A DNA stretch of 64,000 bases from Gemmatimonadota bacterium (GCA_039586795.1 JBDHJS010000002.1:32001-96000); one strand, 5' to 3'; counted from the first letter of the stretch, positions 10,549 through 62,862 are shown. Notes: a model not told the origin generated them from the sequence alone. Program-made: numbers and translations.

Positions 10549-12885
10549 CTAGTTCAGATTCTCCTCGAACAGCTTCAAGATCCGACGGTACTCATCCGTC
10601 CAGGCCCAATCGTGCTCGAATCCGTGCTGCTCCTTGGGATAGATCGCCACCTCCCAGTTCTCCTTGCCAAGCTCCATCAAGCGCTCGGCCAGGCGGACCG
10701 TGTCCTGGAAATGGACATTCTGGTCGATCATGCCGTGGCAGATCAGCAGCGCCCCTTCCAACCCCTCCGCATGATAGATGGGCGAGCTGAGACGGTACGC
10801 CTCCGCATCGTCCTGCGGCAGCCCGAGAATGCGCGACGTGTACCAGTGATTGTAGTAGGCCCAATCGGTCACCGGACGCAAAGCGGCTCCCGCGGCAAAT
10901 GTCTCAGGCTCCAGGAACATCGCCATCAACGTGATGAAGCCGCCGTAGCTACCACCATAGAGCCCGATCCGACCCGGCTCGATCCCCAATGAGTCGATGA
11001 GGAACGCCGCACCATCGACCTGATCCGCGAGGTCCTTTCCGCCCATGTGCTTGTGAATCGCCGTCCGCCAGTCACGCCCATACCCGGCCGAGCCCCGATA
11101 GTCGATATCGAGCACCGTGTAGCCCCGCTGGGCGAGCAGGTTGTGGAACATGTATTCCCGGTAGTAGCTGCTCCACCAACTGTGGACGTTCTGCAGGTAG
11201 CCCGCGCCGTGGACGAAGATCACGGCCGCGCCGTTCGGGTTCTCCGGCCGATAAAGGCGGGCAGGGACCTCGAGACCGTCGCGTGCCGGGAAGTACACGA
11301 TCTCTGGAACCATCCAGTCACGAGCTTCGAACTCGGGCGTCGTCGACTCGGTGATCTGTCGCGCCCGGGCGCCTTCCTTGTTGTCCTGCAGGAAAAGTTC
11401 CGGCGGGTGGTTCATCCAGGCGTAAAGCACTCCCAACCGGCGGCCATCCGGCGACACGGCAACCGAGCTCGATCCGCCCTGCATCGTCCCGTGCCCGGTG
11501 ACCAGGCGCCGATCCCTGCCATCCAGGTTCATGCGGTAGAACCCGCGCTCGTGGGGGCTCGCTTCACTCGTGATCAGGAAGAACTCCTTCTCGTCGGGCG
11601 ACAGCCAGGCGTTCAACACTTCCCACGGGCCTGTGGTTAGCGGGAGCGGCTCCCCGCCGCCCACGGCGATTGTGTAGAGATGCGCGAAGCCGGACGCCTC
11701 CGACATGTACCAGACGTGGTCGCCGTCGGGCATCCAGCCGGCGCTGGCCCATCCCGGGCCACCGATCCATGCATCATCGTGCAGCTGATCGACGATGCGT
11801 GACTCACCGGTCTCGGGATCAACGATGAAGACCCAGCGGTCCTTCATGTCGTCGGCGAGTCCCATGATCAGCAGCCGCTGTGAGTTCTTGGACCACCCGC
11901 GGAACATCAGTCGGACTTCACGATCCTCCTGGCCGTGGTCGACCCAGATCACCTCACCCGTCGTCAGGTCCATGATGCCGAGTTTGGAACTGCTCTGTGC
12001 ATCGCCGACGTTGGTCCGCTTGCGAGGTGCCTGCCGCGTGTACCCGTCCTCCGTCACGTAGTCCGGGACCCAGGCGAGGCGCGGATTCTGCGCTTCCATG
12101 GAGAGGCTGAACACCATCTGCGAGCCGTCCGGCGATATCCAGTATCCGCCGAACCTCTCGCCGTTCTTCACGAAGAACGTCTTTGGCGTGTCGACCTGCT
12201 CCGGGTCCGTGGGCGGCGGCCAGCGGGTTGCCCGCTGAATTGAGTCCTCACGAAAGACGCGCAGCAGTTCGGCCTGCTCCTCCTCCAGGAATAGGCGCTG
12301 TCCCTCCGCTTCCCGTTCCTCGCGTGGCTCGTTGCCGCGTCGGATGTCGGTGAGCTGGGTGATCGTCCCGCTGCTCACATCGACGCGAAAGAGGTTGTTG
12401 CTGACCACGTAGTAGACGGCGCTGCCGTCGGGCGCGATCCGAATCGACGACAGTCGCCCGGGAGTCGACAGCAGCAGGCGTTCCTCGCCGCTCCTCACGT
12501 CGAGCAAGTAAAGATCGCCGCCGTCAGTGAACGCAGCCCAGCGTCTGTCATCGCTGTACGTGGCCGACAGACGCGGTTGCAGGTGCCGCGCCTCGTCGTC
12601 ATCGACGACTTCCGGGTCGCCGCCACCCCGGTCCACACGATAGACCCGCTGTCGCTCCTCCCCCGGCGGCTTCCAAACGAAGTACAGAGTCCGGCCGTCC
12701 GGCGACCAGCTGAGCCGGGAAGGTGAGGTCCCCACCAGCGCGGGGCCTTGCATGATGTAAGGGACGGTAAGTTCCGACTGGGCCTGAACGGTGGGCGCTT
12801 GCGGCGCCTGTGTGCTGGCTACGTTTACATGTGAAGCGACTAGAACCAACGCGATGAGGAAAACGCTGAGATAGTTGACCCGCAT
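10549..12885 (-). CDS. S9 family (prolyl oligopeptidase / dipeptidyl peptidase IV-like) peptidase, secreted
   Basis: Signal peptide; beta-propeller; VHGAGY, DYRGSAGYGRDW, GGSYGG nucleophile, D (DQNV) and H (QHGF). Confidence 0.93.
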   Translation of the reverse strand: MRVNYLSVFLIALVLVASHVNVASTQAPQAPTVQAQSELTVPYIMQGPALVGTSPSRLSWSPDGRTLYFVWKPPGEERQRVYRVDRGGGDPEVVDDDEARHLQPRLSATYSDDRRWAAFTDGGDLYLLDVRSGEERLLLSTPGRLSSIRIAPDGSAVYYVVSNNLFRVDVSSGTITQLTDIRRGNEPREEREAEGQRLFLEEEQAELLRVFREDSIQRATRWPPPTDPEQVDTPKTFFVKNGERFGGYWISPDGSQMVFSLSMEAQNPRLAWVPDYVTEDGYTRQAPRKRTNVGDAQSSSKLGIMDLTTGEVIWVDHGQEDREVRLMFRGWSKNSQRLLIMGLADDMKDRWVFIVDPETGESRIVDQLHDDAWIGGPGWASAGWMPDGDHVWYMSEASGFAHLYTIAVGGGEPLPLTTGPWEVLNAWLSPDEKEFFLITSEASPHERGFYRMNLDGRDRRLVTGHGTMQGGSSSVAVSPDGRRLGVLYAWMNHPPELFLQDNKEGARARQITESTTPEFEARDWMVPEIVYFPARDGLEVPARLYRPENPNGAAVIFVHGAGYLQNVHSWWSSYYREYMFHNLLAQRGYTVLDIDYRGSAGYGRDWRTAIHKHMGGKDLADQVDGAAFLIDSLGIEPGRIGLYGGSYGGFITLMAMFLEPETFAAGAALRPVTDWAYYNHWYTSRILGLPQDDAEAYRLSSPIYHAEGLEGALLICHGMIDQNVHFQDTVRLAERLMELGKENWEVAIYPKEQHGFEHDWAWTDEYRRILKLFEENLN

Positions 12886-40947: not shown

Positions 40948-42153
40948 TTACTCGTAACGAAGTGCGACTATAGGGTCGAGCCGCGCCGCCCTCCTGGCAG
41001 GATAGATCCCGAAGAACAACCCGACTGCAGCCGAGAAACCAAAAGCGAGGACAATCGCCTGAGGAGCGACCGCCGTATTCCAGTTCGCGAAGTGGGTTAA
41101 GGCGATAGCCGACCCGGCGCCCACACCAAGCCCCAAGAACCCACCGAGCAGGCAAAGCGACAGCGCCTCGATGAGGAATTGGAAAAGGATGTTCCTGCGC
41201 GTCGCACCCATCGCCTTGCGGACTCCGATCTCACGCGTTCGCTCGGTCACCGAGACCAACATGATGTTCATGATCCCGATGCCACCCACCAAGAGGCTGA
41301 CTAAGGCAATGCCGGTCAGCAGCAAGGTGAAGGTCTGGGTCGTCTCTTGGAAGGTGCTCATCAGGTCCGCCCGGTTGCGGATCATGAAGTCGTTGTCTTC
41401 CCCAGGGCGCAGCTTGTGCTCGCGGCGGAGAATGCGCTCGGCCTCGACCATCGCCGCATCGATCTGCTCGGCTGAAGTTGCCACGATGGTGATGTTGTTC
41501 AGGCGGTCGCTTCCGCTCATGCGATAGCGGGCCGTGGTAAGCGGTATGACAGCGCGATCGTCGACGCTGTTGTGGCCGCTCAGCCCCGATGGCTCCAGCA
41601 CACCGATGACCTTGAAAGGTATCCCGCGGATTCGGATCGTCTGGCCGACGATATCCAAAGCCGTTCTTCCAAGCACCGCCGGCAGCTCCGATCCAAGCAC
41701 GGCGACGGTCCTGCGCGCGACTACGTCCGCGTGACTGAAGAAGCGGCCGGCATCGAGTTGGGCGTTCTGGACATCGAAATACTCGGGGACGGTGCCGGTG
41801 ATCTCGGCGGAGGCGTTCCGGTTCAGCAACTCGACCTGCAGGTCGATCTCCGATTCGGGGACGACGGCCGAGAGCGTCGTGGCGTCACGCTCCAGGGCCT
41901 CGTAGTCCTCGATCCCGATGAAGTTGCCGCCCATGCCAACGCCCCGGTGGTGACCCCAGCCGGAGGAGATCGTGAGTTGGTTGGAGCCCAGCTGCTCGAT
42001 CTGAGCCTGCACGGCACGCTGCGCGCCTTCGCCCATGGCGACTACTGTTATGACGGCGCCGACGCCGATGATGATGCCCAGCATCGTCAGGAGCGAGCGC
42101 AGCTTGTGTACGTGCAGCGCGGCGAGTGCGACCTTGAACGTTTCCCATAGCAT
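40948..42153 (-). CDS. MacB/FtsX-family ABC transporter permease
   Basis: RSLLTMLGIIIGV, GGIGIMNIMLVSVTERTREIGVRKAMGA and PARRAARLDPIVALRYE. Confidence 0.95.
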   Translation of the reverse strand: MLWETFKVALAALHVHKLRSLLTMLGIIIGVGAVITVVAMGEGAQRAVQAQIEQLGSNQLTISSGWGHHRGVGMGGNFIGIEDYEALERDATTLSAVVPESEIDLQVELLNRNASAEITGTVPEYFDVQNAQLDAGRFFSHADVVARRTVAVLGSELPAVLGRTALDIVGQTIRIRGIPFKVIGVLEPSGLSGHNSVDDRAVIPLTTARYRMSGSDRLNNITIVATSAEQIDAAMVEAERILRREHKLRPGEDNDFMIRNRADLMSTFQETTQTFTLLLTGIALVSLLVGGIGIMNIMLVSVTERTREIGVRKAMGATRRNILFQFLIEALSLCLLGGFLGLGVGAGSAIALTHFANWNTAVAPQAIVLAFGFSAAVGLFFGIYPARRAARLDPIVALRYE

Positions 42154-42180
42154 CGGTCGGTCTCCGCTTTTGGGGTCGCC

Positions 42181-43389
42181 CTACTCGTAGCGTAGGGCGA
42201 CGATCGGATCCAACGACGCGGCGCGCCGCGCCGGGTAGATCCCGAAGAAGAGTCCCACGCCAGCCGAGAAGCCCACCGCCAGCCCGATCGCTGCCGGCGC
42301 CACGGCGGTATTCCAGTTGGCGAAGTGGGACAGAGCCATGGCGGCGCCGGCACCGGCCAGCAGGCCGAACAGGCCACCGATCATGCACAGCGTTAGCGCT
42401 TCGATCAGGAACTGGAAGAGGATGTTACGCCGCGTGGCGCCCATCGCCTTGCGCACGCCGATCTCCCGCGTCCGCTCGGTTACCGAGACCAACATGATGT
42501 TCATGATCCCGATGCCGCCCACCATCAGGCTGACCAGGGCGATGCCGGCCAGCAGGATTGAAAAGGTCCGGGTCGTTTCCTCGAAGGTCGAGAGCAAATC
42601 CGTCCGATTGCGGATCGAGAAATCGTTATCCTGGCCGGGCCGCAGCTGGTGTTCGCGACGCACGATGCGCTCGATCTCGACCAGTGCGGCGTCCATGTGC
42701 TCTGTCCCCGCGACCTCGACGGTGATCGAGTTCAGCCGGTCGCTGCCACTGATACGGTACTGCGCAGTGGAAATAGGGATAATCAGTCGGTCGTCAACGC
42801 TGTAAAACCCTTGTTGCCCGGAAGGCTTGAGCACGCCGACTACCTCGAAGGGGATGGCGCGGATGCGAATGGTCTGTCCGACGAGCAGGTCCGCTGTCGT
42901 GCCGAGGCGTACCGGAAGCTCGGAGCCGACGACGGCGACGGTCTTGCGTGCGATCATGTCCGAATTGTTGAGGAAACGGCCGTAGTCGATGTCCATCTTC
43001 CGAACGTCAATGAACTCGGGTGTGGTGCCCACGACCTGGGAGTTGACGTTGTTGTTCCGGAGCTCGACTTGGAGCCGGCTCGACATCTCGGGGACCACGG
43101 CCGTGGCGAATGTCGCTTCCGCACTTAGAGCCTCATAGTCATCGGTTCCAATGAACGTGCTCCCCGCCGCACCGACCCCGCGCCACCAGCGGTAGCCCGA
43201 CTGGACCGTCAACTGGTTCGTGCCAAGCTGTTCGATCTGGGCCTTCACGGCGCGTTGCGCGCCCTCGCCCATGGCGACGACAGTGATCACCGCGCCGACG
43301 CCGATGATGATCCCCAGCATGGTGAGGAACGAGCGCATCTTGTTGGCGCGCAGCGCTTGTACAGCGACTTTGATCGTCTCCCACATCAT
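42181..43389 (-). CDS. MacB/FtsX-family ABC transporter permease (tandem paralog)
   Basis: Same motifs as the adjacent permease. Confidence 0.95.
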   Translation of the reverse strand: MMWETIKVAVQALRANKMRSFLTMLGIIIGVGAVITVVAMGEGAQRAVKAQIEQLGTNQLTVQSGYRWWRGVGAAGSTFIGTDDYEALSAEATFATAVVPEMSSRLQVELRNNNVNSQVVGTTPEFIDVRKMDIDYGRFLNNSDMIARKTVAVVGSELPVRLGTTADLLVGQTIRIRAIPFEVVGVLKPSGQQGFYSVDDRLIIPISTAQYRISGSDRLNSITVEVAGTEHMDAALVEIERIVRREHQLRPGQDNDFSIRNRTDLLSTFEETTRTFSILLAGIALVSLMVGGIGIMNIMLVSVTERTREIGVRKAMGATRRNILFQFLIEALTLCMIGGLFGLLAGAGAAMALSHFANWNTAVAPAAIGLAVGFSAGVGLFFGIYPARRAASLDPIVALRYE

Positions 43390-43394
43390 AGGGC

Positions 43395-44807
43395 TTAGTT
43401 ACTCCTCATTCCGGGTACGCCGCTGCCGCGGAAGCGCTGGTAGCGCTCGAGCAGCTGGACTTGGTCACGCAACAAGGAGGCGGTGGGCAGAAGCGCCACC
43501 GAGTCACCGGGCTGCAGACCTGAGACCACGTGGATGTCTTCCCAGTCCGTCACACCTACGCGGACCGGAACCGGCACGAGCTGACCGTCGCGCATGACGA
43601 ATACCACACCGGGCATCGGTGCACCCGCTCGCTGCTGCTGCTCACGCTGCTCTCGCATTCTCTGGAACTGCTCGCGCATCTGCTGCATTTCTTGCGGCGT
43701 CATCTGGCCGCTCTGGAAGCGCTCGCGGATCGAGTCGCGCTGCGCCTGCGTCATGCGGCCCATGCCGCCGCCCATCCCATCGCCGGTCGTCGCGGGACCA
43801 TCGCCGTTAGAGCCGGCCTCTTGCGGCGTATTCTCCTCCAGCAGGCGCTGGAAAACCTCGGCGTCGATGCCCAGCGCCAGCTCCGCGACTTCCTGTGCGT
43901 CGTCTGAGGGATGCACGGCTTGGGTCGGTACGGTGGTCGCGTTCTCGGCCCGTGCAACCTGGATGGTCACCTCAGCGCTCATCCCAGGCTTTAGCAACCC
44001 TTCGCGGTTGTCGATCCGGATGATCACCGGGAACATCGTGACATTCTGCGTGACGGTGGCTTGCGGCTCGATCTTCAGCACCCGACCCTGGAAGCTGCGG
44101 TCCCGAAACGCCTCAACGGCGATCTCGGCCGGCAGCTCGGGCTCGACGCGGCCGATGTCGGTCTCATCCACCAACGTCCGGACCTGCACCTCGGCCAGGT
44201 CCGCCATGTTCATGAGGACCGTGCCGCCACCGACCACTTGCGTGGCGGACGAAATCACCTGGCCTGGCTCGACCAGACGCTGGATGATGATACCGTTGAT
44301 CGGCGCGCGGATCGTCGTCTCTGACATCCGCTCGCGCGCGATCTCGAGGCTGGCCTCGGCGCGGACCAGCTGAGCCTTTGCGTTGGCGTGCTCCAGCTCC
44401 GCCTGCTCGAAGTCCTGCTCGGAGATGATCTCCGACTCCATCATCGTGTTAGCGCGCTCGAGCTGTGACTCGGCGATCTTGAGTCGCGCCCGGGCCACCT
44501 CGAGATCGGCTTCGGCCTGGTTTAGCGTCTGACGTGCGTCTTTCTGCTCGACCTGAACCAGCAGGTCGCCTTGCTCGACGTAGTCACCGCTCTCCACGGG
44601 GATCGAGAGGATTTCCCCGGACGCTTTCGATTTGACCTCTACCGTGGTGACGGGCTCGACGACGCCCGCGGCTTCGGCTGAAATGGCGAGCGTCTTCTGC
44701 TGTGCGGCCACGACCTGGAACGGGCGACCCTCTTCCTGCTCCGCACAGGCGGCGGTCAGCAACACCGCCAGCAACCCGCTCAGCGCGACGTAGTTCCTTG
44801 CACTCAT
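43395..44807 (-). CDS. MacA-like periplasmic adaptor (membrane fusion) lipoprotein
   Basis: Lipobox TAAC; VEVKSKASG, IRAPING, VDETDIG and LKPGMSA motifs. Confidence 0.93.
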   Translation of the reverse strand: MSARNYVALSGLLAVLLTAACAEQEEGRPFQVVAAQQKTLAISAEAAGVVEPVTTVEVKSKASGEILSIPVESGDYVEQGDLLVQVEQKDARQTLNQAEADLEVARARLKIAESQLERANTMMESEIISEQDFEQAELEHANAKAQLVRAEASLEIARERMSETTIRAPINGIIIQRLVEPGQVISSATQVVGGGTVLMNMADLAEVQVRTLVDETDIGRVEPELPAEIAVEAFRDRSFQGRVLKIEPQATVTQNVTMFPVIIRIDNREGLLKPGMSAEVTIQVARAENATTVPTQAVHPSDDAQEVAELALGIDAEVFQRLLEENTPQEAGSNGDGPATTGDGMGGGMGRMTQAQRDSIRERFQSGQMTPQEMQQMREQFQRMREQREQQQRAGAPMPGVVFVMRDGQLVPVPVRVGVTDWEDIHVVSGLQPGDSVALLPTASLLRDQVQLLERYQRFRGSGVPGMRSN

Positions 44808-44813
44808 GATCTA

Positions 44814-45218
44814 TTATCTTCCTCTTCTGCCGTGACGGCGCTCGGCTTCCTCCGCCAGCAGCGCCTCGTACACCTCGAGCTGCTCGTCCGAAAGGACCGC
44901 GCGGATATCAGCTCGCAGTTGCGTTTTGAACTCCTCGAACCGGGGGCGCATCTCCTTCCACTGGTCCGACACCCGTTCCCGGTAGCGTTCGACCAGCACC
45001 TCTATTTCTGACCGCTGTCCCTCGGTCAGTGTCAGTTCTTCCGCGAGCCAGTCGATGTAGCTGCGCCGCTGGTCTCGATCGCCGTCTCGTCGGTCTCGGT
45101 TCTCTACGGTCCCGCGATTGCTGACGAACATTCGGTCGATCGCCGCACCCGCTACGCCGCCCATCAGCAGCACGACGAGCAACAGGGTCAGCGCCCACGC
45201 TTTAGACTTCCCAATCAT
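44814..45218 (-). CDS. Membrane-anchored periplasmic Spy/CpxP-like helical protein
   Basis: N-terminal TM; LTLTEGQR and VLSDEQ (LTxxQ-like) motifs. Confidence 0.65.
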   Translation of the reverse strand: MIGKSKAWALTLLLVVLLMGGVAGAAIDRMFVSNRGTVENRDRRDGDRDQRRSYIDWLAEELTLTEGQRSEIEVLVERYRERVSDQWKEMRPRFEEFKTQLRADIRAVLSDEQLEVYEALLAEEAERRHGRRGR

Positions 45219-45640
45219 TGTCCTTCACCTGAATCGTCGGGAACGCGTCCACCGTTCCCATTCTGGAGAAGAGCCGCCGCCATCACCGCATCGGTGTCCG
45301 GCTCGTTAATAGCTACCAACAAAGCAGGAACATCACCCGCCTCACCGGAGGCGAGCACGTCCTCGAGAGTGACCGGCTGAATCTCCGACGACCGGTCGGG
45401 TCCGAATTGAAGCGCCGCCGCGAACACGAGTAGCGCGACGCTCGCCGCCACGAGACCCGGTCGGGCCCACGCCGCCAGAATCTCGAATGACGTCGCCGGG
45501 CGAGCACGTCGTTCCAGCAACGGCTCGGCCGCCGCCAGGATGCGCGCCTGCGCCGCCTGGCGCTGTGCTTCCGAGCGGTTCGGCGCCCTCAGCGCATCGA
45601 GCCCTTCGATCGGCTGGTTTTCGTGTTCTGGGGCCATCAT
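45215..45640 (-). CDS. Putative single-TM anti-sigma factor
   Basis: Directly follows the ECF sigma gene; one TM helix. Confidence 0.55.
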   Translation of the reverse strand: MMAPEHENQPIEGLDALRAPNRSEAQRQAAQARILAAAEPLLERRARPATSFEILAAWARPGLVAASVALLVFAAALQFGPDRSSEIQPVTLEDVLASGEAGDVPALLVAINEPDTDAVMAAALLQNGNGGRVPDDSGEGQ

Positions 45641-45653
45641 TTCACCTCTTCGA

Positions 45654-46217
45654 TTACCGTTGGTACTCCTTCAGCGCCTCTCTCAGCATCCGGCGGGCGC
45701 GGGAGAGGTGTGACCGGCACGTCCCCTCCGGGATGCCGAGCACTTTTGCGATCTCGGGGTGCGTGAAACCCTCCAGGTCATGGAGGACCACCACCGTCTC
45801 GAGATCATCGGGCAGCGAGCTCACCGCTGCGGCCAAACGGCCGCGCAACTCCGCCCGCTCCGTATCGACCGCCGGGCTGTCAGGCCCTGAGGCCGACGCC
45901 GGCACGTCCTCGGTGCGCCGGCGGGCCAGGTACTTCCGTCGGTTGAGCGCCGCGTTCACCAGTAGCCGGTAGAACCACGGCCCGAAGTTGCTGCCCCGAC
46001 CCAGCTTGTCGATCCGCTCCAGCGCCCGGATGAACGCATCCTGGACCAGGTCCTCGGAGTCCTCGGCGTGCTGGAGAAACCCATAGGCGACGGCGAAAGC
46101 CTGCTCGGAATAGCGATCCACGAGGATGCCAAAGGCCTCCCGGTCACCCCGGCGCACGCGCTCGACGAGCAGCGGCTCGTCGATGACCGGAGTCTGGCCC
46201 TCACCCGTGGCGTCCAT
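45654..46217 (-). CDS. ECF RNA polymerase sigma factor
   Basis: GDREAFGILVDRY, EDLVQDAF, FGPWFYR; region 4 EIAKVLGIPEGTCRSHLSRAR. ATG start at 46217. Confidence 0.95.
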   Translation of the reverse strand: MDATGEGQTPVIDEPLLVERVRRGDREAFGILVDRYSEQAFAVAYGFLQHAEDSEDLVQDAFIRALERIDKLGRGSNFGPWFYRLLVNAALNRRKYLARRRTEDVPASASGPDSPAVDTERAELRGRLAAAVSSLPDDLETVVVLHDLEGFTHPEIAKVLGIPEGTCRSHLSRARRMLREALKEYQR

Positions 46218-46619: not shown

Positions 46620-47792
46620 ATGAGCACCCACGATTATCGCGATTTCTTGTCCGACGCCCCCCGCGTCGATGCTTACCGGCGTGCGATACAGTCCACCGTG
46701 AAGCCGGGCGACGTCGTGCTCGACGTGGGAACGGGGATCGGGACGTACGCGATGTTCGCGGCACGGGCGGGCGCCAGGGTCCTGGCCGTCGAGATGGATC
46801 CGGTGATCGATACCGCCCGGGAGCTTGCGGCGGAGAACGGCCTCGACGACCGCATCGTCTTCCTGCGAGGTCGCGTCGAGGAGCTCGAGCCACCGGAGCC
46901 GGCCGACGTTCTGATCTTCGAGGACTTCTCCCCCTTTCTCTATCACTCGGATACGTCGCGCCTGCTCGATCGGGTGGCCAGCCGTTGGCTCAAGTCGTCG
47001 GCGACGTCGATTCCCCGATCGCTGAGGGCGATCACAGCGCCGGTCAGCTGCCCGACCGCGTACGGCGCAATCGCGCCATGGGGAGACGGAAAGGCGTTCG
47101 GGCTCGATGTCGGCCGGTTTTCGCGACAACTCTTCAACGAGTTACATCCGGTTGTATTCGACCCCAAGGTCATCCTGGCTGACCCTCTGGAAGCGGGCCG
47201 CGTCGAGCTGCCGTCCGCCGATCCGTTCGGCCTGGACGTGTCGGTCGGCTGGCAGGCGGATCGGGAGGCGGAGCTGCACGGTCTCGGGCTTTGGATCGAT
47301 CTCGAGCTGGCAGAAGGTGTGACATTCTCCAACGCCCCGAGGGGCCTTTCCACCGGCTGGGATCAGCGCCTACTGCCTCTGGCTGAGCCGATTGAAGTCC
47401 TGGCCGGCGATGCTATCGAGGCGCAGGTTCGGACGATGGGCCCCGCTCCTCGGGAACCGGAGTGGTGGAGTTGGCGGGTATCGGCCGGTGGCCGGACGCA
47501 AGAGATGAACACGTTCAAAGGCCTACCGTTGTCGAAGGCACAACTGCGACAGGCTGGAGTAGATCGACGGCCGAACCTCGGCGCCCGCGGCAAGATCCGA
47601 CTCGCGGTTCTGGAACTCATGGATGGGCGCCATTCAGTCGCCCAGATCGCTGGGGAGCTGAGGGAACGTTTTCCGGATCTGCTGAGTACCGATGCAGAGG
47701 CCTTGCGCGCGGTTGCGCGGGAGATAAGGCTCAACGAGGATCCCGCCTCCACCCAGGCGCGCGACACGCCAGGAACGAGCACGGAAAGATGA
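46620..47792 (+). CDS. PRMT-fold class I SAM methyltransferase with C-terminal winged-helix/RRE-like domain
   Basis: D..R..AY helix; VLDVGTGIG; LAVE; DVLIFE; GLGLWIDLEL..FSNAP..TGWDQ beta-barrel (THW-loop analogue); C-terminal LELMDGRHSVAQIAGEL. Confidence 0.85.
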   Translation: MSTHDYRDFLSDAPRVDAYRRAIQSTVKPGDVVLDVGTGIGTYAMFAARAGARVLAVEMDPVIDTARELAAENGLDDRIVFLRGRVEELEPPEPADVLIFEDFSPFLYHSDTSRLLDRVASRWLKSSATSIPRSLRAITAPVSCPTAYGAIAPWGDGKAFGLDVGRFSRQLFNELHPVVFDPKVILADPLEAGRVELPSADPFGLDVSVGWQADREAELHGLGLWIDLELAEGVTFSNAPRGLSTGWDQRLLPLAEPIEVLAGDAIEAQVRTMGPAPREPEWWSWRVSAGGRTQEMNTFKGLPLSKAQLRQAGVDRRPNLGARGKIRLAVLELMDGRHSVAQIAGELRERFPDLLSTDAEALRAVAREIRLNEDPASTQARDTPGTSTER

Positions 47793-48040
47793 ACCACGAA
47801 GATCCGACACGCCGGGAGTTTCTTCTCAAGATCGCCCGTGGCGCGGTCTATAGCGCGCCGCTGATCGCGACGTTTGCCGTGGCTCCGGATCTGCTGGCAC
47901 AGGCAGGCTCGGCGCCCGGCCACCATCACATGCACGCGGCCCCATCGGCGCCCCAGCAGACCACGACTCCGTCCGACGCGCCCGGCGCTTCGCCGACGGA
48001 GAAGCATCCGCCGCCGAGCAGGAAAGGCGAGGGCGGCTAG
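47789..48040 (+). CDS. 83-aa putative precursor peptide with twin-Arg/YxxP leader
   Basis: ATGA overlap with the methyltransferase stop; MNHEDPTRREFLLKIARGAVYSAPLIATFAVAPDLLA-QAGSAPGHHHMH...SRKGEGG. Confidence 0.75.
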   Translation: MNHEDPTRREFLLKIARGAVYSAPLIATFAVAPDLLAQAGSAPGHHHMHAAPSAPQQTTTPSDAPGASPTEKHPPPSRKGEGG

Positions 48041-48052
48041 GCGCCGCGTTCG

Positions 48053-48865
48053 GTGTCCGACCCGGCGACTCTCCTCTATCGCTTTCCCGGCGCCGAGCGG
48101 ATCGTCTCCGCCCGCGTCGCGCCGACCGAGTTCATTCCCCTCATAGACGATTTCTATGCTGCCTATCGCTGTCGCTTATCTGACAGCGAGCTGCCGGTCG
48201 ATCAGGTGATCGAGCTGGAGTACGATGGCGGTGTGTACCGGGTAACGGTCCCCAGTGGCGATTGGGAAGCGGAGTCCGAGGGAGACGCCGTCCTGTTCTA
48301 CGAATACGAGCTGACCGATGCGCTGCTAACAGGCGCCGACGAGTTCGTTAATCTGCATGGTACCGCAGTCGTTCGTGAGTCGCGCTCGATGCTGCTGTTG
48401 GGTCCGTCAGGCACCGGGAAATCGACACTCGCCCTGGCCCTATCGCTGGCGGGTTGGCAAACGATCGCCGATGACGCGCTGCTGATCGACCCGGGGACGG
48501 GTGAGGTCCAACCGTTCGACCGGTCAATCCGCGTCCACGAGTCTAGCTTGCGGGCGCTAGATGTTGATCACGCCACCATCGAAGGGGCCCGATTCTGTGA
48601 ACCGTACCTGTGGCTGAAGGTGCCCGAATCCGGCGCACCCGGTTTGCTCAACCCGGATGCCCTGGTGTTTCTGCGGTCCGGAGCGGCGACCTCGATAGAG
48701 CGGCTGGACGTCACAAACACCCTGAGGGAACTGTTGATCGCGCGCCTGAGCGACCAGAGCGAGCGCGACTTCGATTGTCTGGCGCGTCTTGCAGCAGAGG
48801 TGCCGGGCTATCTACTGAGCTTCGAGGGCTTCCCGGAAGCGCTGGCGGAGCTAGAGTCGCTCTGA
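48053..48865 (+). CDS. HPr kinase-related P-loop kinase
   Basis: LHGTAV, GPSGTGKSTLA (Walker A) and IADDALLID; resembles HprK-related and lasso-peptide kinases. Confidence 0.82.
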   Translation: MSDPATLLYRFPGAERIVSARVAPTEFIPLIDDFYAAYRCRLSDSELPVDQVIELEYDGGVYRVTVPSGDWEAESEGDAVLFYEYELTDALLTGADEFVNLHGTAVVRESRSMLLLGPSGTGKSTLALALSLAGWQTIADDALLIDPGTGEVQPFDRSIRVHESSLRALDVDHATIEGARFCEPYLWLKVPESGAPGLLNPDALVFLRSGAATSIERLDVTNTLRELLIARLSDQSERDFDCLARLAAEVPGYLLSFEGFPEALAELESL

Positions 48866-49273
48866 CCCGTAAGCATCGGACCAGAGGTCAGCGTTCTCCA
48901 TCACCCGCACCCTGTAGACGCTCACGCCTTCGGGCAACCGCGCCTCGACCTTTTCAAGGATGAAGGCCGCCAGGTTCTCTGTGGTCGGCATCCGACCGCC
49001 AGGGCCGAACTCGGGGATCTCGGAGTTGATGTCCCGGCCATGGAGTGGGATGACTTCGGCCCCTAGGATCTTGTCGAGCGCCCCGAGGTCGATGACCATC
49101 CCGCTCTTCTCATCGATCGCGCCCTGGACGGTAACCTCGCAGCGATAGTCGTGGGCGTGGGTCTCCGCCAAAGCGCCGAAGCGCCGGCGGTTCTCCTCTT
49201 CGCTCCAGTCAGAACGATGGTAGTGATGCGACGCGGTGAAACGGACCGCTCGCGTAAGAAAGCCCAATGGCAT
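48851..49273 (-). CDS. 6-pyruvoyl-tetrahydropterin synthase/QueD (T-fold) family protein
   Basis: FTASH, EENRRRFG, HAHDY, GMVIDL and PTTENLA motifs. Confidence 0.88.
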   Translation of the reverse strand: MPLGFLTRAVRFTASHHYHRSDWSEEENRRRFGALAETHAHDYRCEVTVQGAIDEKSGMVIDLGALDKILGAEVIPLHGRDINSEIPEFGPGGRMPTTENLAAFILEKVEARLPEGVSVYRVRVMENADLWSDAYGSERL

Positions 49274-49341
49274 GGTTCCCAATCCCTGAATCCCTCTGAA
49301 AGCCTCGATATCTTTGACTGGGCCCGGTAAGTTAGGCACTC

Positions 49342-50256
49342 ATGAAAGAGCCAGCCACCGCCGGGAAGCTGCCGAGACAAGCTAAGTTCGTCGATCTCAG
49401 CGACTACGCCCGTCCGCTCGCCGCGTGGATCGCCCGGCGTCTGCGCGATACGAGGATCACCGCTCCCCATGTAACTCTGGTCTGGGTCGTGCTCGGATTG
49501 GGCGCCGCTGCGTGTTACGGCTTGGGTGGCTTCGGCCTGGCTCTAACCGGCGCGGTGCTCATGCAGGTGAAGAACATCCTTGATGCCGTGGATGGGTCCC
49601 TCGCCAGGCTCCAGGCCAGGCCATCGCGAATCGGGCGCTTCCTCGACTCGATCGGCGACGCGTTCATCGCGGCGGCCATCGCCGCGGCGCTCGGCGTGGC
49701 TGTCGCTCGTGGACGGCCGCTGGCGCTCGCTGTCTCGCTGGCCGTGGCGGCACTGGTGTTCGGACTGCTGCAGGGCTCCGTCTTCAACTACTACTACGTT
49801 TGCTACCGGGTGCGTCAGGGCGGCGATACGACCAGCCGGGTCAAAGAAGCGCTGACCGAGAGCGATGCGATGCACTACGACGGTCGACCGGGGGCGCTCG
49901 CGCTGCTACGCGTGCTGATCGCCGCGTACAACTGGATCTATGGCTGGCAGGATTTGGTCGTTCACCGCATCGACGAATGGGCTGTCCGACCGCTCACCTC
50001 AGAAGGCCGCGGCGAGGAAGCGGATGCGCTGCGGGACGATCGGCGATTCCTCACGGCCGTCAGTTTGCTTGGCCCGGGCGTCCAAATTCTACTGCTCAAT
50101 CTGCTTACCGTTGCGGGCTACTGGAACCTGGGGGCGATGCTGGAGCTGTTTCTCTGGATCGTAGCGGCCGGCGGCACGTCTTACGCCGCGGCCCTCATGC
50201 TGCTGCTCAGAATCAGAACTAAGCGCGCGGCCCGATTACCGGCCGCAACCGTTTGA
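49342..50256 (+). CDS. CDP-alcohol phosphatidyltransferase family protein
   Basis: LDAVDGSLARL...GRFLDSIGD signature. Confidence 0.88.
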   Translation: MKEPATAGKLPRQAKFVDLSDYARPLAAWIARRLRDTRITAPHVTLVWVVLGLGAAACYGLGGFGLALTGAVLMQVKNILDAVDGSLARLQARPSRIGRFLDSIGDAFIAAAIAAALGVAVARGRPLALAVSLAVAALVFGLLQGSVFNYYYVCYRVRQGGDTTSRVKEALTESDAMHYDGRPGALALLRVLIAAYNWIYGWQDLVVHRIDEWAVRPLTSEGRGEEADALRDDRRFLTAVSLLGPGVQILLLNLLTVAGYWNLGAMLELFLWIVAAGGTSYAAALMLLLRIRTKRAARLPAATV

Positions 50257-50270
50257 GTTAGATTCCGCCC

Positions 50271-52415
50271 ATGCCAAATACAAATCTCGAGTCGCTGCGA
50301 TCGATTTTCGAGCCACGCTCAATCGCGGTAGTCGGCGCCAGCCGACGTCATCAGACCATAGGATACGTTATTCTCGACAGCCTGCTTCGCGACGGTTTCA
50401 CAGGTGCGGTCTACCCCGTGAACCCGAAGAGCGAAGTCGTGCATTCGATGCGGGCCTATCCTTCGATCGCCGAGGTACCGGAGAAGGTGGATCTCGCCGT
50501 GATCGTCGTGCCGAAGGAGCTGGTGCTGGCGGTAGCCGAGGAGTGCGGCGCGGCGGGTGTGAAGGGGCTGGTGGTCATTTCGGCGGGCTTCCGGGAGATC
50601 GGCGGCGAGGGTGTGGGGCGCGAGAAGGCGTTGACGGACGTCGCCCGCAAGTACGGGATGCGCTTGGTGGGACCCAACTGCATGGGCGTGCTGAACACCG
50701 ACCCGGCCATCGCGATGAACGCCACGTTTGCTCCCACGGCGCCGCCGACGGGGAACGTCGCGTTCCTCAGTCAGTCGGGCGCGATTGGTGTCACGATCCT
50801 CGACTACGCCCGGGAATACGGTATCGGCGTCAGCAAGTTCATCAGCCTGGGTAACAAGGCCGATATCTCCGGCAACGACGTCCTCGAGTACTTAAAAGAT
50901 GACGACAGTACTTCCGTCATCCTGATGTATCTGGAGAGCTTCGGTAACCCTCGGCATTTCACCCGCATCGCGCGAGAGGTGACGCAGGTGAAGCCGGTTG
51001 TCGCGGTCAAGGCCGCGCGCACTGTTGCCGGCGCCCGGGCGGCGAGCAGCCACACCGGTGCAATGGCCGGACTCGACGTGGCCACCGATGCCCTGTTCTC
51101 CCAGTGCGGCGTGATCCGCGTCGATACCGTCGAGGGTCTGTTCGACATGGGGATGGGTTTCGGCAATGCCGCTCTACCGAAGGGTAACCGGGTCGCCGTG
51201 GTTACGAACGCCGGCGGCCCCGGGATCATCATCGCCGATGCGATAGAGTCGCAAAATCTGCAGGTGGCGGAGTTCACCGATCACACGAAAGACCGGCTGC
51301 GGCAATCTCTGCCCGAGGAAGCCTCGATCAACAACCCGGTCGACATGATCGCCAGCGCCGACGCCGACAGCTACCGAGCCGTGCTGGAAGCGGTGCTCGA
51401 CGACCCCGGTGTCGACGGCGTGATCGCTTCCTTCGTACCACCGCTGGGCGTGCAGTCCGTCGACGTTGCCCGGGCGATCACCGACACGGCGGCGGGACGC
51501 GAGCAGCCCACGTTCGCAGTGCTCATGGGTCGACAGGGGCTGAGGGAGAGCCGGGCGTTGCTGAGCGCCGCCAGCGTGCCGGCGTACATCTTCCCCGAAT
51601 CGGCGGTGCGGGCCCTGACCGGCATGGACCGCTACCGACGCTGGTTGGAGCGCCCGGGCGGAATGGTTCATCGCTATGAGGATGTCGACCGGCGTGCGGT
51701 CCGGCAGATCCTGGAGGGGGCGGCACGCGAGGGCCGGTCACGTCTGTCGGAGGGAGACGCCCTATCGATCCTCGAAGCGTACGGAATTCCGACGGTTCCC
51801 TGGCGCGTGGCGGCGACGGCCGATGAGGCCATCGCCGCGGCAGAAGCCGTGGGCTTCCCAGTCGTGCTCAAGGTCATGGCACCGGAGGTCTCCCATAAGT
51901 CGGATGTTGGGGGCGTGATCGTCGGTCTCGATTCGGACCGCGAAGTCCGCGGTGCTTACTACGAGATGATGGATCGCCTGGAGAAGAACGGCGTGGTTGG
52001 TGATGCGATCGAGGGTGTGCTGGTTCAGAAGATGGTCACCGGCGGACGCGAGACGATCATCGGCACAGCGTTCGACCCAAGCTTCGGCCCGTTGATCATG
52101 TTCGGATTAGGCGGCATCTATGTAGAGGCGCTCGGCGATGTCGTGTTCCGCATCCACCCCGTAAGCGACATCGACGCGGCAGAGATGGTGCGTCAGCTCA
52201 AGGGCTTCAAGCTCCTTCAGGGCGTGCGGGGCGAGAAAGGAGTCGATCTGAACGCCATTCAAGAGGTCATACAACGCATCAGTCAGCTAGTCGGCGACTT
52301 CCCCCGGATCGCCGAGCTCGACATCAATCCGTTCGTCGCTTTCGAGCCCGGCACCAATTCGATGGCTCTCGATGCGCGCTTGCTGATCTCGGACGAACCG
52401 GAGTCCCGTCGATGA
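50271..52415 (+). CDS. Acetate--CoA ligase (ADP-forming) family, fused alpha/beta
   Basis: IAVVGAS, GPNCMG, SQSGA, SSHTG (phospho-His), HKSDVGGV and ELDINP motifs. Confidence 0.94.
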   Translation: MPNTNLESLRSIFEPRSIAVVGASRRHQTIGYVILDSLLRDGFTGAVYPVNPKSEVVHSMRAYPSIAEVPEKVDLAVIVVPKELVLAVAEECGAAGVKGLVVISAGFREIGGEGVGREKALTDVARKYGMRLVGPNCMGVLNTDPAIAMNATFAPTAPPTGNVAFLSQSGAIGVTILDYAREYGIGVSKFISLGNKADISGNDVLEYLKDDDSTSVILMYLESFGNPRHFTRIAREVTQVKPVVAVKAARTVAGARAASSHTGAMAGLDVATDALFSQCGVIRVDTVEGLFDMGMGFGNAALPKGNRVAVVTNAGGPGIIIADAIESQNLQVAEFTDHTKDRLRQSLPEEASINNPVDMIASADADSYRAVLEAVLDDPGVDGVIASFVPPLGVQSVDVARAITDTAAGREQPTFAVLMGRQGLRESRALLSAASVPAYIFPESAVRALTGMDRYRRWLERPGGMVHRYEDVDRRAVRQILEGAAREGRSRLSEGDALSILEAYGIPTVPWRVAATADEAIAAAEAVGFPVVLKVMAPEVSHKSDVGGVIVGLDSDREVRGAYYEMMDRLEKNGVVGDAIEGVLVQKMVTGGRETIIGTAFDPSFGPLIMFGLGGIYVEALGDVVFRIHPVSDIDAAEMVRQLKGFKLLQGVRGEKGVDLNAIQEVIQRISQLVGDFPRIAELDINPFVAFEPGTNSMALDARLLISDEPESRR

Positions 52416-53260: not shown

Positions 53261-53362
53261 CCTCCCTTCGCCCACGCCTCTGTGGGGAACCTCTCGAAAA
53301 ACAAGTCTGTTACAGGAACGTGGAAGTGCAGTGCAGCCCGCGGGATGGGGGAGCCTAACTGT

Positions 53363-53743
53363 ATGCGCAGCAAAACGTTCGGAGTGTCGGCCCTTCTGGC
53401 CGTTGTGGCGGCCTCCGCCGTCTTGACCCGAGAGATCTCCGGAACGCAGGACCGACTTTCCTCTGCGTCCGTGATCGACATCGAGATCAAGACATTCCAA
53501 TTCAACGAGGACACGATTCGGGTGCAGCCGGGCACGTCTGTCCGCTGGACCAACCGTGACCAGGTCGGTCATACGAGCACAGCGGAGAACGGCGAGTGGG
53601 AATCGCCGCTGCTGGGACCGGGCGAGTCGTTCGAGTTTCTCTTCGAGGAAGAGGGCGAATTCCCGTATACCTGCACGCCACACCCATTCATGCGTGGAAT
53701 GATCATCGTTGCGTCCGATGCGGATGCGCGAGAGCGCTCATGA
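53363..53743 (+). CDS. Secreted cupredoxin (plastocyanin/amicyanin-like)
   Basis: Signal peptide; WTNRDQVGHT and YTCTPHPFMRG supply type-1 Cu ligands H/C/H/M. Confidence 0.9.
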   Translation: MRSKTFGVSALLAVVAASAVLTREISGTQDRLSSASVIDIEIKTFQFNEDTIRVQPGTSVRWTNRDQVGHTSTAENGEWESPLLGPGESFEFLFEEEGEFPYTCTPHPFMRGMIIVASDADARERS

Positions 53744-53789
53744 GGCGTCTGTCGAAGTGTACATACATGACCTGCATCAAGGAGGGAGT

Positions 53790-54794
53790 ATGAAGAAGCC
53801 GAGGTTTGCGTTCGCGTCGACCGTTGCCGTCCTCGCCGTCGGCGCGCTGGCGTGGTCCGCCTGCTCCGACTCGACGGAGCCGAATGGGAACGGCAATGGC
53901 AACGGCAACGTCGGTCCCCCGGCCAACGTCGCTATCGCCTCCGGTGATAACCAGCGCGTGATGATTCAGATCGCATTCTTCGATGCGCTCGTCGTGCTGG
54001 TGACCGACGCCGATGGTGACGCCGTATCCGGTGCGACAGTAGACTGGGCCATCACCCAGGGCGGTGGCTCGCTGTCCGCGGCCAGTTCGACGACGAACGC
54101 CAACGGGCGGGCGAGCGTGACGCTCACGGCCGGCATGGACGAAGAGACCATCCAGGTCACGGCCAGCGTGGACGGAGTGGCCAGCGCCCCGGTCTTCAGC
54201 GAAGTGGCCGTGGAGCCGAGCTCGATAGCGGCGACCGACGGCGACAACCAGATGGCCCGGATCGATCAGCCGCTGGCGAACCCGCTTGAAGTCACGGTGC
54301 GGGCCAGTGACAACGGTCCGGTGCCCGGCGCCACGGTGGACTGGCAGGTGACGGCAAACGACGGGACGCTGTCCACGGCTAGCTCTACAACGGACGCGAA
54401 CGGCGAGGCGACGACGATGCTGACCCTCGGTTCGACCCTGGGCGGGAACACCGTTCAGGCGTCGGCTGGTACGGGAATCGATACGAACCTGAACGCCAAC
54501 GGTACGCAGCCCGTTTCGGTCACGGTGGACATGCAGAACATCGCGTTCAACGCGCCGGGGGGCGGGGACGATGTGACGATCATGCTCGGCGATACCGTGA
54601 CCTGGAACAACCTGGATGCGGTGAACCACACGGCCACGTCGAACAGCGTGCCCACGGGCGGCAGCGGCTTCGACAGCGGTACGATGGGGAACGGCGCTAC
54701 GTTCTCGTTCGTGCCTAACACCCGGGGCGAGTGGATCTACTTATGCGAGTTCCATCCGGTTGCCATGGCGGACGCCCGCATCGTCGTGCAGTGA
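53790..54794 (+). CDS. Lipoprotein with two Ig-like (Big_1/invasin-type) domains and C-terminal cupredoxin
   Basis: RBS GGAGG; lipobox WSAC; two SGDNQ/DGDNQ...TNANG/TDANG repeats; NHTAT..YLCEFHPVAM. Confidence 0.82.
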   Translation: MKKPRFAFASTVAVLAVGALAWSACSDSTEPNGNGNGNGNVGPPANVAIASGDNQRVMIQIAFFDALVVLVTDADGDAVSGATVDWAITQGGGSLSAASSTTNANGRASVTLTAGMDEETIQVTASVDGVASAPVFSEVAVEPSSIAATDGDNQMARIDQPLANPLEVTVRASDNGPVPGATVDWQVTANDGTLSTASSTTDANGEATTMLTLGSTLGGNTVQASAGTGIDTNLNANGTQPVSVTVDMQNIAFNAPGGGDDVTIMLGDTVTWNNLDAVNHTATSNSVPTGGSGFDSGTMGNGATFSFVPNTRGEWIYLCEFHPVAMADARIVVQ

Positions 54795-61905: not shown

Positions 61906-62304
61906 TTATGGGATAGGGACGACCTGGATTCCGACGCGTCTTGTTCGCGGACCGTCGAATTCGCAGAGGAAGACGGATTGCCAGGTTCCGAGGGCGATCT
62001 CGCCTTCGGAGACCAGCAGTGCGGCGCCGGGGTTCATCAGGCTGGTCTTCACGTGGGAGTCGGAGTTCCCCTCGGCGTGATGATAACCCTCGTCCCGGGG
62101 GACCAGCTGTCCCAGCTTCCAATCGATATCGCGAGCAACATCAGGGTCGGCGCCTTCGTTGACGGTCAGGCCGCAGGTGGTGTGGAAGGACCAGAGGTGG
62201 GCGACACCCTCCTCGACGCCGGTGCGGCGAACCGCCTCGCGGACCTGGCCTGTGATGTCGATCAGCTCCGACCTACGCGACGTCTTTACCTTTAGTATCT
62301 CCAT
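61906..62304 (-). CDS. yjbQ: YjbQ family secondary thiamine-phosphate synthase
   Basis: HTTCGLTVNEGADPDV, HAEGNSDSHVK and LGTWQSVFLCEFDGPR. Confidence 0.92.
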   Translation of the reverse strand: MEILKVKTSRRSELIDITGQVREAVRRTGVEEGVAHLWSFHTTCGLTVNEGADPDVARDIDWKLGQLVPRDEGYHHAEGNSDSHVKTSLMNPGAALLVSEGEIALGTWQSVFLCEFDGPRTRRVGIQVVPIP

Positions 62305-62725
62305 CCTCGGCGTCCGCTTCCTTGGCAGTCGTGTCCGAGTCATCGGCCGGTGGACCCGGCGAATCAGTGGCCGACGGGTCTTCCGCCTGCGGCGCCGATG
62401 ATGCGGCCGGCGCCCGTGGCGTCATGGCGATCTCCGCCTCGCTGGTGACTTCCGGTTCGGAATCCTCGGGGATCTCCGCCGTCGAGGCCGGCTCGTCGGA
62501 CAGCGGCGACGGCGGAAGGATGCTCTTCATATAGGATTTGGCGTCGGTGGCCTGCTGGTCGGCCTGGGCGACCTCCCGCTTCACCTCGTTCAGCGCCTTC
62601 TGGAACTCCCGCATCGTCTTACCGATGGACTGGGCAATACCGGGCAAGCGGCGCGGCCCGAAGAAGATTAGGGCGAACGCCAGGATGACGAGGAATTCGG
62701 TCCAGCCGATATTGCCAATGCCCAT
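62273..62725 (-). CDS. Twin-arginine translocase TatA/TatB family subunit
   Basis: IGWTEFLVILAFALIFFGPRRLPGIAQSIGKTMREFQKA. Confidence 0.9.
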   Translation of the reverse strand: MGIGNIGWTEFLVILAFALIFFGPRRLPGIAQSIGKTMREFQKALNEVKREVAQADQQATDAKSYMKSILPPSPLSDEPASTAEIPEDSEPEVTSEAEIAMTPRAPAASSAPQAEDPSATDSPGPPADDSDTTAKEADAEDGDTKGKDVA

Positions 62726-62763
62726 GGGATTCTGGGATTCGGTGATTACGAGATTCGGGGGTT
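62726..62763. repeat. Octamer-based REP-like half element
   Basis: GGGATTCTGGGATTCGGTGATTACGAGATTCGGGG. Confidence 0.65.
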
Positions 62764-62862
62764 GGACAGCCGCGCGGGCGCCAACCACCACTTCAATATA
62801 GCGCCCTGCTGGCAGGCGTCAGTAGCCGTGGGAATCGGGGGGGTCCGGTCGTAACCCCAGAA

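Follow-up and report, generated by a model that had tools for sequence, protein, structure and literature searches.

A candidate peptide cassette of Gemmatimonadota combining a twin-arginine-type leader with an RRE, an HprK-type kinase and a PRMT-fold methyltransferase

The linear polyphosphorylated peptides (LPP) of Bacillota are encoded by lppA-K-B-S-D-N clusters (Popov et al. 2026, PMC13381572), and the Bsf lasso cluster of Bradymonas sediminis (BsfA/B1/B2/C/D/K/N, PMC10368454) has an RRE-assisted kinase. LppK and BsfK are both described as acting on Ser 3 of the core (PMC13381572, PMC10368454). In the bufferins and other signal-peptide RiPPs, the export signal is the leader and the housekeeping signal peptidase is the leader peptidase; these systems rely on Sec or lipoprotein signals, their MNIO enzymes act on Cys, and the modifying complex has been proposed to mask the signal (PMC12452194, PMC13056109). 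The words 'Tat' and 'twin-arginine' are absent from the main texts of these two reports. Our searches, which covered the main texts of papers lying mostly outside subscription journals, turned up neither a natural Tat-leader RRE precursor nor a PRMT-fold RiPP enzyme.

Here we analyze a ~2.5 kb operon within the window, that is, the whole 64,000-nucleotide stretch of Gemmatimonadota DNA under study. It encodes, in order, an RRE, a methyltransferase, a short peptide and an HprK-type kinase, with gaps of 21, -4 and 12 bases between the genes (Table 1). The RRE gene is absent from the preliminary description of this DNA and was found by gene calling; a stand-alone PqqD gene at this position strengthens the idea, put forward there, that the leader of the peptide is recognized by an RRE.

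Table 1. Features of the cassette, in window coordinates
Feature	Position	Strand	Evidence
Stand-alone PqqD/RRE peptide chaperone, 93 aa	46317..46598	+	PF05402 2.7e-15; TIGR04353 48.7 bits, cut-off 35
PRMT-fold SAM methyltransferase, 390 aa, three-helix C-terminal tail	46620..47792	+	PRMT6 E 5e-26, residues 6-281
Precursor peptide gene, 83 aa, with a predicted leader of 37 and core of 46 residues	47789..48040	+	
Twin-arginine-type motif, residues 7-14	47807..47830	+	RR in 174/180 non-redundant homologues (inflated, as the profile was built from leaders having both RR and YxxP)
YSAPLI, YxxPx[LIV]-type candidate RRE-binding motif	47849..47866	+	[YWF]xxP in 178/180 (inflated for the same reason)
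Predicted signal peptidase I site, LLA/Q	47891..47902	+	[AG]Q in 31/40 methyltransferase-linked peptides
Ser 41 (core +4), predicted phosphorylation site	47909..47911	+	Early Ser/Thr conserved
HHHMH, representing here a patch rich in His, Met or Lys; possible methyl acceptor or metal ligand	47921..47935	+	
Pro-rich C-terminal motif P[ST][DE]x[HYN]PP (PW..PPP in distant kin)	47993..48019	+	57/59 close homologues
HprK-type peptide kinase, 270 aa	48053..48865	+	TIGR04352 1e-16, below cut-off

From the sequence comparisons described below, we propose a route to which, taken as a whole, we assign a probability of roughly 55%. The RRE would bind the YxxP motif of the leader in the cytoplasm, the kinase would phosphorylate Ser 41, and the methyltransferase would methylate the His/Met patch adjoining this serine (or the phosphate itself). 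The same leader would then send the product through Tat, and signal peptidase I would cut at LLA/Q to free the core, for which the calculated monoisotopic mass in unmodified form is 4556.14 Da. Tat would suit this logic, because binding of the RRE would mask the middle part of the signal until modification is complete. The likeliest role of the product would be that of a modified periplasmic or surface peptide.

The 83-residue ORF is a real and conserved gene. Its translation is identical to the peptide originally described, its ATG overlaps the stop codon of the methyltransferase gene as ATGA (47789-47792), and the 192-residue ORF said to bury it is indeed spurious, being the same frame extended upstream over the methyltransferase gene from 47462. 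A hexamer coding model trained on the host's own genome scores the peptide at +10, the upstream extension of the 192-residue ORF at -48, and a 214-residue ORF on the opposite strand at -74. In comparison with six relatives, 106 of the codon changes in codons 5-44 are synonymous and 33 are non-synonymous; codon positions 1, 2 and 3 account for 36, 22 and 115 differences, respectively. Contigs from RNA libraries (three runs, two studies) match the peptide gene near-perfectly (X3, 47815-48031, no differences; X2, 47938-48177; X6, 47627-47825; a further contig, X1, covers parts of the methyltransferase gene only), with shares of 0.05-0.10 that are to be read with possible DNA in the libraries and no silent control. 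The peptide has no cysteine, no family model in Pfam or NCBIfam covers the precursor, and there is no second copy in the host genome.

As judged from its genes, the cassette would operate much as the phosphopeptide systems LPP and Bsf do, yet it is not an LPP member. It has in common with the LPP clusters a discrete RRE, a YxxP leader, an HprK-type kinase with the catalytic motif, a conserved N terminus with a variable C terminus, and the lack of a cyclase; an NTP transferase is also shared, here in distant kin only, as are an early serine in a ~45-residue core that starts near Ala-Gln and signal-peptidase-type cleavage, here predicted. In contrast, the LPP clusters of Bacillota possess a SipW-like/archaeal-type peptidase, LppS, of which we found none in the window between 38 and 64 kb or among 36 scanned flank proteins, together with an MsbA-like exporter and an NTP transferase, neither of which is present in the window cassette. 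The host here is Gram-negative, the window peptide departs from the LPP consensus YxxPxVLxHQxIxFETxxS, and the words 'twin-arginine', 'Tat' and 'methyltransferase' are absent from the main text of the LPP report (PMC13381572).

The register of the leader is closer to that of Bsf. Counted from the predicted cut, YSAPLI places Tyr at -17, Pro at -14 and Ile at -12, the same register as BsfA (Tyr -17, Pro -14, Leu -12; PMC10368454), and LppA (Tyr -16, Ser 3; PMC13381572) is close to the register of the linked peptides. The spacing from Tyr to Ser is 20 residues here, 18 in LppA and 19 in BsfA. The Bsf cluster, however, contains a lasso cyclase, a B2 peptidase and an ABC exporter, none of which is found here, while its gene list (PMC10368454) includes neither the RR motif nor a methyltransferase. 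More generally, the peptide does not look like a lasso precursor: no macrolactam cyclase or B2 peptidase lies beside the cassette, the Thr at -2 typical of lasso peptides is lacking, and core positions 7-9, where a lasso ring has Asp or Glu, are Gly-His-His. Nor does it resemble an MNIO metallophore, with no Cys to modify and no MNIO gene in the cassette. In terms of the HPr-rel-A models, the RRE passes the cut-off of TIGR04353, whereas the kinase is related to TIGR04352 but falls below its cut-off (60.9 bits against 200).

Full-length methyltransferases occur in 9 of 40 related genomes, all of the host's own family (9/24), and the peptide follows directly in all nine; homologous peptides therefore do stand beside homologous enzymes, a check that the preliminary description had called for. 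The peptide lies directly 3′ of the methyltransferase gene in 10 of 10 close loci. A profile of the whole peptide yielded 74 database proteins and, among 401 genomes of the phylum, 17 genuine matches, a further 10 of the 27 matched genomes having been dropped as chance matches on inspection. A profile of the leader alone matched 262 sequence clusters (50% identity), 150 of them listed. Scanning a species collection returned 72 methyltransferase loci, mostly in named Gemmatimonadota, with others in KSB1, Poribacteria, Nitrospinota, Nitrospiraceae, Marinimicrobia and Desulfobacter. The RRE is present in 68 of these loci, the kinase in 67 and the leader in 62. Five of the ten loci that lack the leader end at or just past the methyltransferase gene, and the leader was not detectable nearby in five enzyme-bearing loci outside Gemmatimonadota (L141, L142, L147, L158 and L177). 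Where the kinase is not adjacent, an orthologue is encoded elsewhere in the genome in three of three cases checked (E ~1e-69).

Gene order varies between lineages and the parts of the cassette stay together. The 14 closest loci have the order seen in the window, and none of them carries the NTP_transf_5 nucleotidyltransferase that is found in 44 of the 72 loci (46 with two Pfam hits); distant kin are mostly ordered kinase, nucleotidyltransferase, RRE, methyltransferase, peptide. The host genome does contain an NTP_transf_5 gene, a distant one that belongs to a sugar-nucleotide locus outside the cassette. Because the lineage of the window has lost the nucleotidyltransferase, modification there would end with a phosphorylated and methylated peptide. 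Flanking genes (310 proteins in 99 clusters, the largest of 13) are mostly unrelated housekeeping genes. No peptidase is conserved beside the cassette in the flanks of relatives, in agreement with the missing protease of the preliminary description, and neither is an exporter. Among the 36 flank proteins (of the 99 clusters) scanned by Pfam, there were no S26, lasso B2 or cyclase families, and an ABC exporter occurred in one scanned flank only.

The peptide is very probably the substrate of the cassette. The RRE is the only PF05402 match in the whole genome. A predicted complex of the RRE with the leader scored 0.55 against 0.00 for the best of three controls, with contacts that agree at 96% or more between runs and a partner pLDDT of at least 67. 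Complex scores of up to 0.60 were accepted for 18 of 157 solved pairs and for 2 of 215 mismatched ones. The model lends weak support to binding, and its score may reflect similar complexes that have already been solved. In the kinase, His 102, Gly 117, Gly 120, Gly 122, Lys 123, Ser 124, Asp 140 and Asp 141 are spaced as in the catalytic motif of BsfK. A second, distant HprK-like kinase is encoded elsewhere in the genome (G000:C19:5531-6490, locus L228) with no RRE or leader nearby.

Phosphorylation of a core serine is quite likely. Of 40 methyltransferase-linked peptides, 38 have Ser or Thr within core residues 1-8, the first of them at +3 to +5 in 34, and only two lack it. Immediately after this position the cores are rich in Lys, His and Met, which make up 39% of core residues 5-14 compared with 8% later. 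At least two such residues occur in the patch of 39/40 linked peptides versus 3/10 unlinked Tat-YxxP peptides, a comparison that is not a statistical test because it sets kin groups with different leader subtypes against each other. No single methyl-acceptor residue is universal among the 40 linked cores: 7 lack Lys, 16 lack His, 11 lack Met and 11 lack Arg.

The methyltransferase was modeled with a pLDDT of 85.7, and the top Foldseek matches of the model are to PRMT6. Like the type I PRMTs (PRMT6, PRMT3, CARM1 and PRMT1), it displays a Rossmann and β-barrel fold, the SAM motifs, the Trp of the THW loop and, in the double-E loop, the first Glu. Unlike them, it has neither the second Glu nor the His of THW, it carries an extra tail of three helices, and its partner cores are often devoid of Arg. 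Across the family, the second Glu is present in 4/60 members and a His before the Trp in 0/56; an acidic residue lies one place past the second-Glu position in 7 of 18 aligned sequences, and the acidic pair E101-D102 is invariant. Arginine is an unlikely target, since both of these PRMT residues are lost and over a quarter of the cores (11/40) have no Arg to offer. Arg 78 of the window peptide was considered as a methyl target and rejected for the latter reason and because it is kept in only 17/59 close homologues. We also considered the C-terminal tail of the enzyme as a full RRE, which was rejected since the model has the three helices with no preceding sheet.

Among possible methyl acceptors, the His/Met/Lys patch stands a little short of an even chance, the phosphate is rather unlikely and any other group is unlikely. 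Substitution of His, Met and Lys for one another within the patch, and the way that the patch tracks with the methyltransferase, fit a methyl-acceptor patch at least as well as they fit a metal site. There is a precedent for this triad of residues in an enzyme of another fold, as SETD3 methylates H73M and H73K peptides (PMC8537074).

The same cassette and export route could instead have the methyltransferase cap the phosphoserine phosphate as a methyl phosphodiester, much as WbdD phosphorylates O-antigen and then methylates the phosphate (PMC3482155). This would account for the loss of the arginine-binding residues, for a kinase that is adjacent in nearly all loci or encoded elsewhere in the checked exceptions, and for the early Ser/Thr being the only near-universal side chain of the core; the nucleotidyltransferase, the other possible source of a cap, is moreover missing from the 14 closest loci. 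In the 44 loci where that enzyme stands beside the methyltransferase, however, two caps would compete. Capping also leaves the association of the patch with the methyltransferase unexplained, and the E101-D102 pair would seem a poorer match for a phosphate than for an acceptor that is neutral or cationic. We regard a phosphate cap as doubtful compared with methylation of the patch.

A metal-binding peptide, with His and Met of the patch as ligands for Cu, Ni or Ag, is compatible with the proposed pathway and, as an account of the peptide, similarly improbable. At least two His/Met occur in core residues 5-14 of 31/40 linked peptides, and the swapping of His and Met seen between lineages is typical of soft-metal sites. 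The window also contains, 5 kb downstream, a gene for a small cupredoxin, and copper-binding signal-peptide RiPPs exist in the form of the bufferins (PMC12452194). However, Lys replaces His/Met in 9/40, His and Met together number one at most in the first 16 core residues of 9/40, no conserved copper-homeostasis genes flank the cassette, and methylation of His would reduce binding. The HHHMH cluster, proposed previously as a Cu or Ni site, does not hold up as a defined motif: it is found in 6/59 close homologues and in 1/174 wider ones, and metal binding is accordingly treated here as secondary. An enzymatic pyroglutamate cap at the N-terminal Gln of the core was another candidate, set aside as the host genome (97.8% complete) has no glutaminyl cyclase of PF05096.

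Turning to the leader, we find the elements named in the preliminary description (YSAPLI, LLA/Q, HHHMH, the SP/TP/SAP sites and the single core Arg) all in place, and comparison of homologues bears out its expectation of a constant leader with a variable core. Its further expectation, that RR and YxxP be conserved, is likewise borne out (Table 1). The set behind these counts comprises 180 non-redundant peptides (<70% identity), from which the long repeat proteins P0180 and P0205 were excluded and in which P0134 was trimmed to its C-terminal part. The assignment of TRREFLLK to the Tat consensus (S/T)RRxFLK needs some qualification, as six of seven places match and the Lys comes one place late. 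An RR-like string by itself is common, a loose RRxFL-like pattern matching dozens of short spurious ORFs in the host genome. It is the pairing with YxxP that exceeds chance: of 21 Tat-like N termini among called genes, only this peptide contains [YWF]xxP[LIVA].

Several features of the leader are those of an export signal. An uncharged run of at least 13 residues, the criterion used by TatFind, follows within 22 residues of RR in 34/40 linked peptides and is lacking in 6/40. The predicted cut has Ala or Gly at -1; [AG]Q is missing in 9/40 peptides, and where present it is located 17 residues past the Tyr in 28/31. A Pro near -5/-6 is kept. Less in keeping with an export signal are an Arg within the early hydrophobic region and Leu at -3 in 24/31. 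Ala-Gln is 4-fold enriched at the ends of signal peptides in the host genome (0.115 versus 0.029). The host encodes TatA as well as TatC, the latter on another contig, and Tat tolerates short, hydrophilic, unstructured cargo. The TatA/B gene reported at 62273 is real (62273-62791, PF02416, 1.5e-15), but the linkage implied by its mention is not, since it is outside the cassette, 14 kb off and on the other strand; its proximity was rejected as evidence. Taken together, Tat export followed by signal peptidase cleavage is reasonably likely.

The RR helix might, on the other hand, be an element for docking the enzymes rather than a Tat signal, in which case the peptide would stay in the cytoplasm or be exported otherwise, for example by the MacB/HlyD proteins encoded divergently from the cassette in the window and its close relatives. 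The leader is conserved far beyond the needs of export, so that contact with the enzymes could be what preserves RR, and the match of the leader to Tat models is weak: the window peptide matches neither PF10518 nor TIGR01409, no Pfam model matches the leader at E<=1, and TIGR01409 is matched weakly by 6 of 20 leaders (best E 0.015). Yet five of the homologues without RR carry RK or KR, substitutions that Tat tolerates, and the uncharged run, the Pro and the Ala/Gly-Gln cut site are retained. The distance from RR to YxxP, 13 residues in some homologues and 8-9 in others, is also easier to reconcile with a signal than with a rigid surface for docking, and MacB and HlyD genes occur in only 6 and 9 flanks. 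A further point against docking is the homologue P0073, in which a related leader precedes an 89-residue protein with a hydrophobic and basic C-terminal tail; this resembles a sorting signal, albeit with weak matches (IPTL-CTERM, E 0.05; midcut-by-XrtH, E 5e-4), and suggests a surface-anchored member of the family. On this evidence docking without export is improbable, and a Tat signal remains the preferred reading of the leader. We found no long secreted protein with this leader, all 66 matches being 73-111 residues long in a search that is weak for long proteins.

That the peptide is an ordinary small Tat-exported protein left unmodified by the neighboring enzymes, as its Pro-rich unstructured tail might suggest, is very improbable given that YxxP is missing from the 20 other Tat-like signals of the genome, that the genome's sole RRE sits in this operon, and that linkage to the RRE and kinase persists across rearranged gene orders in KSB1, Poribacteria and other lineages.

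The proposed route gives a substrate to orphan RRE/HprK-kinase cassettes, with or without the nucleotidyltransferase, of Gram-negative bacteria. If it is right, Tat would join the Sec and lipoprotein export routes that double as RiPP leaders, and it would become clear what reaction is carried out by a bacterial family of PRMT-fold methyltransferases that has lost the arginine-binding residues. Peptide engineering would also benefit from a leader under which highly variable cores are both modified and exported. A bolder version, tentative and on balance unlikely, has the leader as both RRE handle and working Tat signal and the PRMT-fold enzyme as a promiscuous His/Lys/Met methyltransferase acting beside phosphoserine. 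It would imply methyl-sulfonium groups on Met-rich cores and a secreted bacterial peptide with histone-like phospho and methyl marks, produced without a peptidase or exporter of its own.

Related arrangements were also seen. Short-spaced Tat-[WY]xxP peptides stand beside an RRE and kinase with no methyltransferase, most of them with a nucleotidyltransferase, in L189, L194, L091, L092 and L089; the cores in L189 and L194, next to the kinase and unlinked to a methyltransferase, carry Tyr at +2 and lack an early Ser/Thr. In L191:6484-7239 and L195:6461-6769, Cys-rich cores come after Tat-WxxP leaders, and an RRE and a kinase of another subtype are encoded alongside. Two tandem precursors, one with a long Met-Gly repeat and the other with a Cys/aromatic segment, occupy L088:7283-7813 (also L149). 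Lasso-type precursors lie beside a related methyltransferase and kinase in L200:4229-5618, L210:7180-9099 and 11455-11841, and L227. The three copies in L210 have Gly/Met-rich tails like the Met-rich cores that follow Tat leaders, and in L200 and L210, both lasso clusters that share the cassette's type of methyltransferase, the tails are likewise Met/Gly/Lys-rich. In L076:5049-6736, HTTM/SdpB-like membrane genes stand between a Tat-leader peptide and its RRE-kinase pair.

Surroundings of the cassette differ by lineage. Six loci (L074, L075, L079, L080, L082 and L084) share a conserved block 3′ of the cassette that encodes a pyridine nucleotide-disulphide oxidoreductase, VTT, DUF547, GT2 and DUF2064 proteins. 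Outside Gemmatimonadota, the cassettes of L122, L130, L158, L168 and L176 seem, by eye, to lie amid polysaccharide-synthesis genes, as LPP clusters do. In the window, an operon for an ECF sigma factor, a probable anti-sigma factor, a Spy/CpxP-like protein, an HlyD adaptor and two MacB permeases (40948-46217, minus strand; MacB and HlyD genes at 40948-44807) is divergent from the cassette with ~100 bases between, an arrangement kept in close relatives only; a promoter region shared with this operon, or envelope-stress control, is possible. On the other side, a QueD/PTPS-like gene (48851-49339, minus strand) converges with the kinase gene and is followed by genes for a CDP-alcohol phosphatidyltransferase and an acyl-CoA ligase (49342-52415, plus strand); these are syntenic in close relatives and absent beside distant cassettes. 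Further downstream, the small cupredoxin, which is amicyanin-like, is encoded together with a lipoprotein that combines Big_1 and cupredoxin domains (53282-54794, plus strand).
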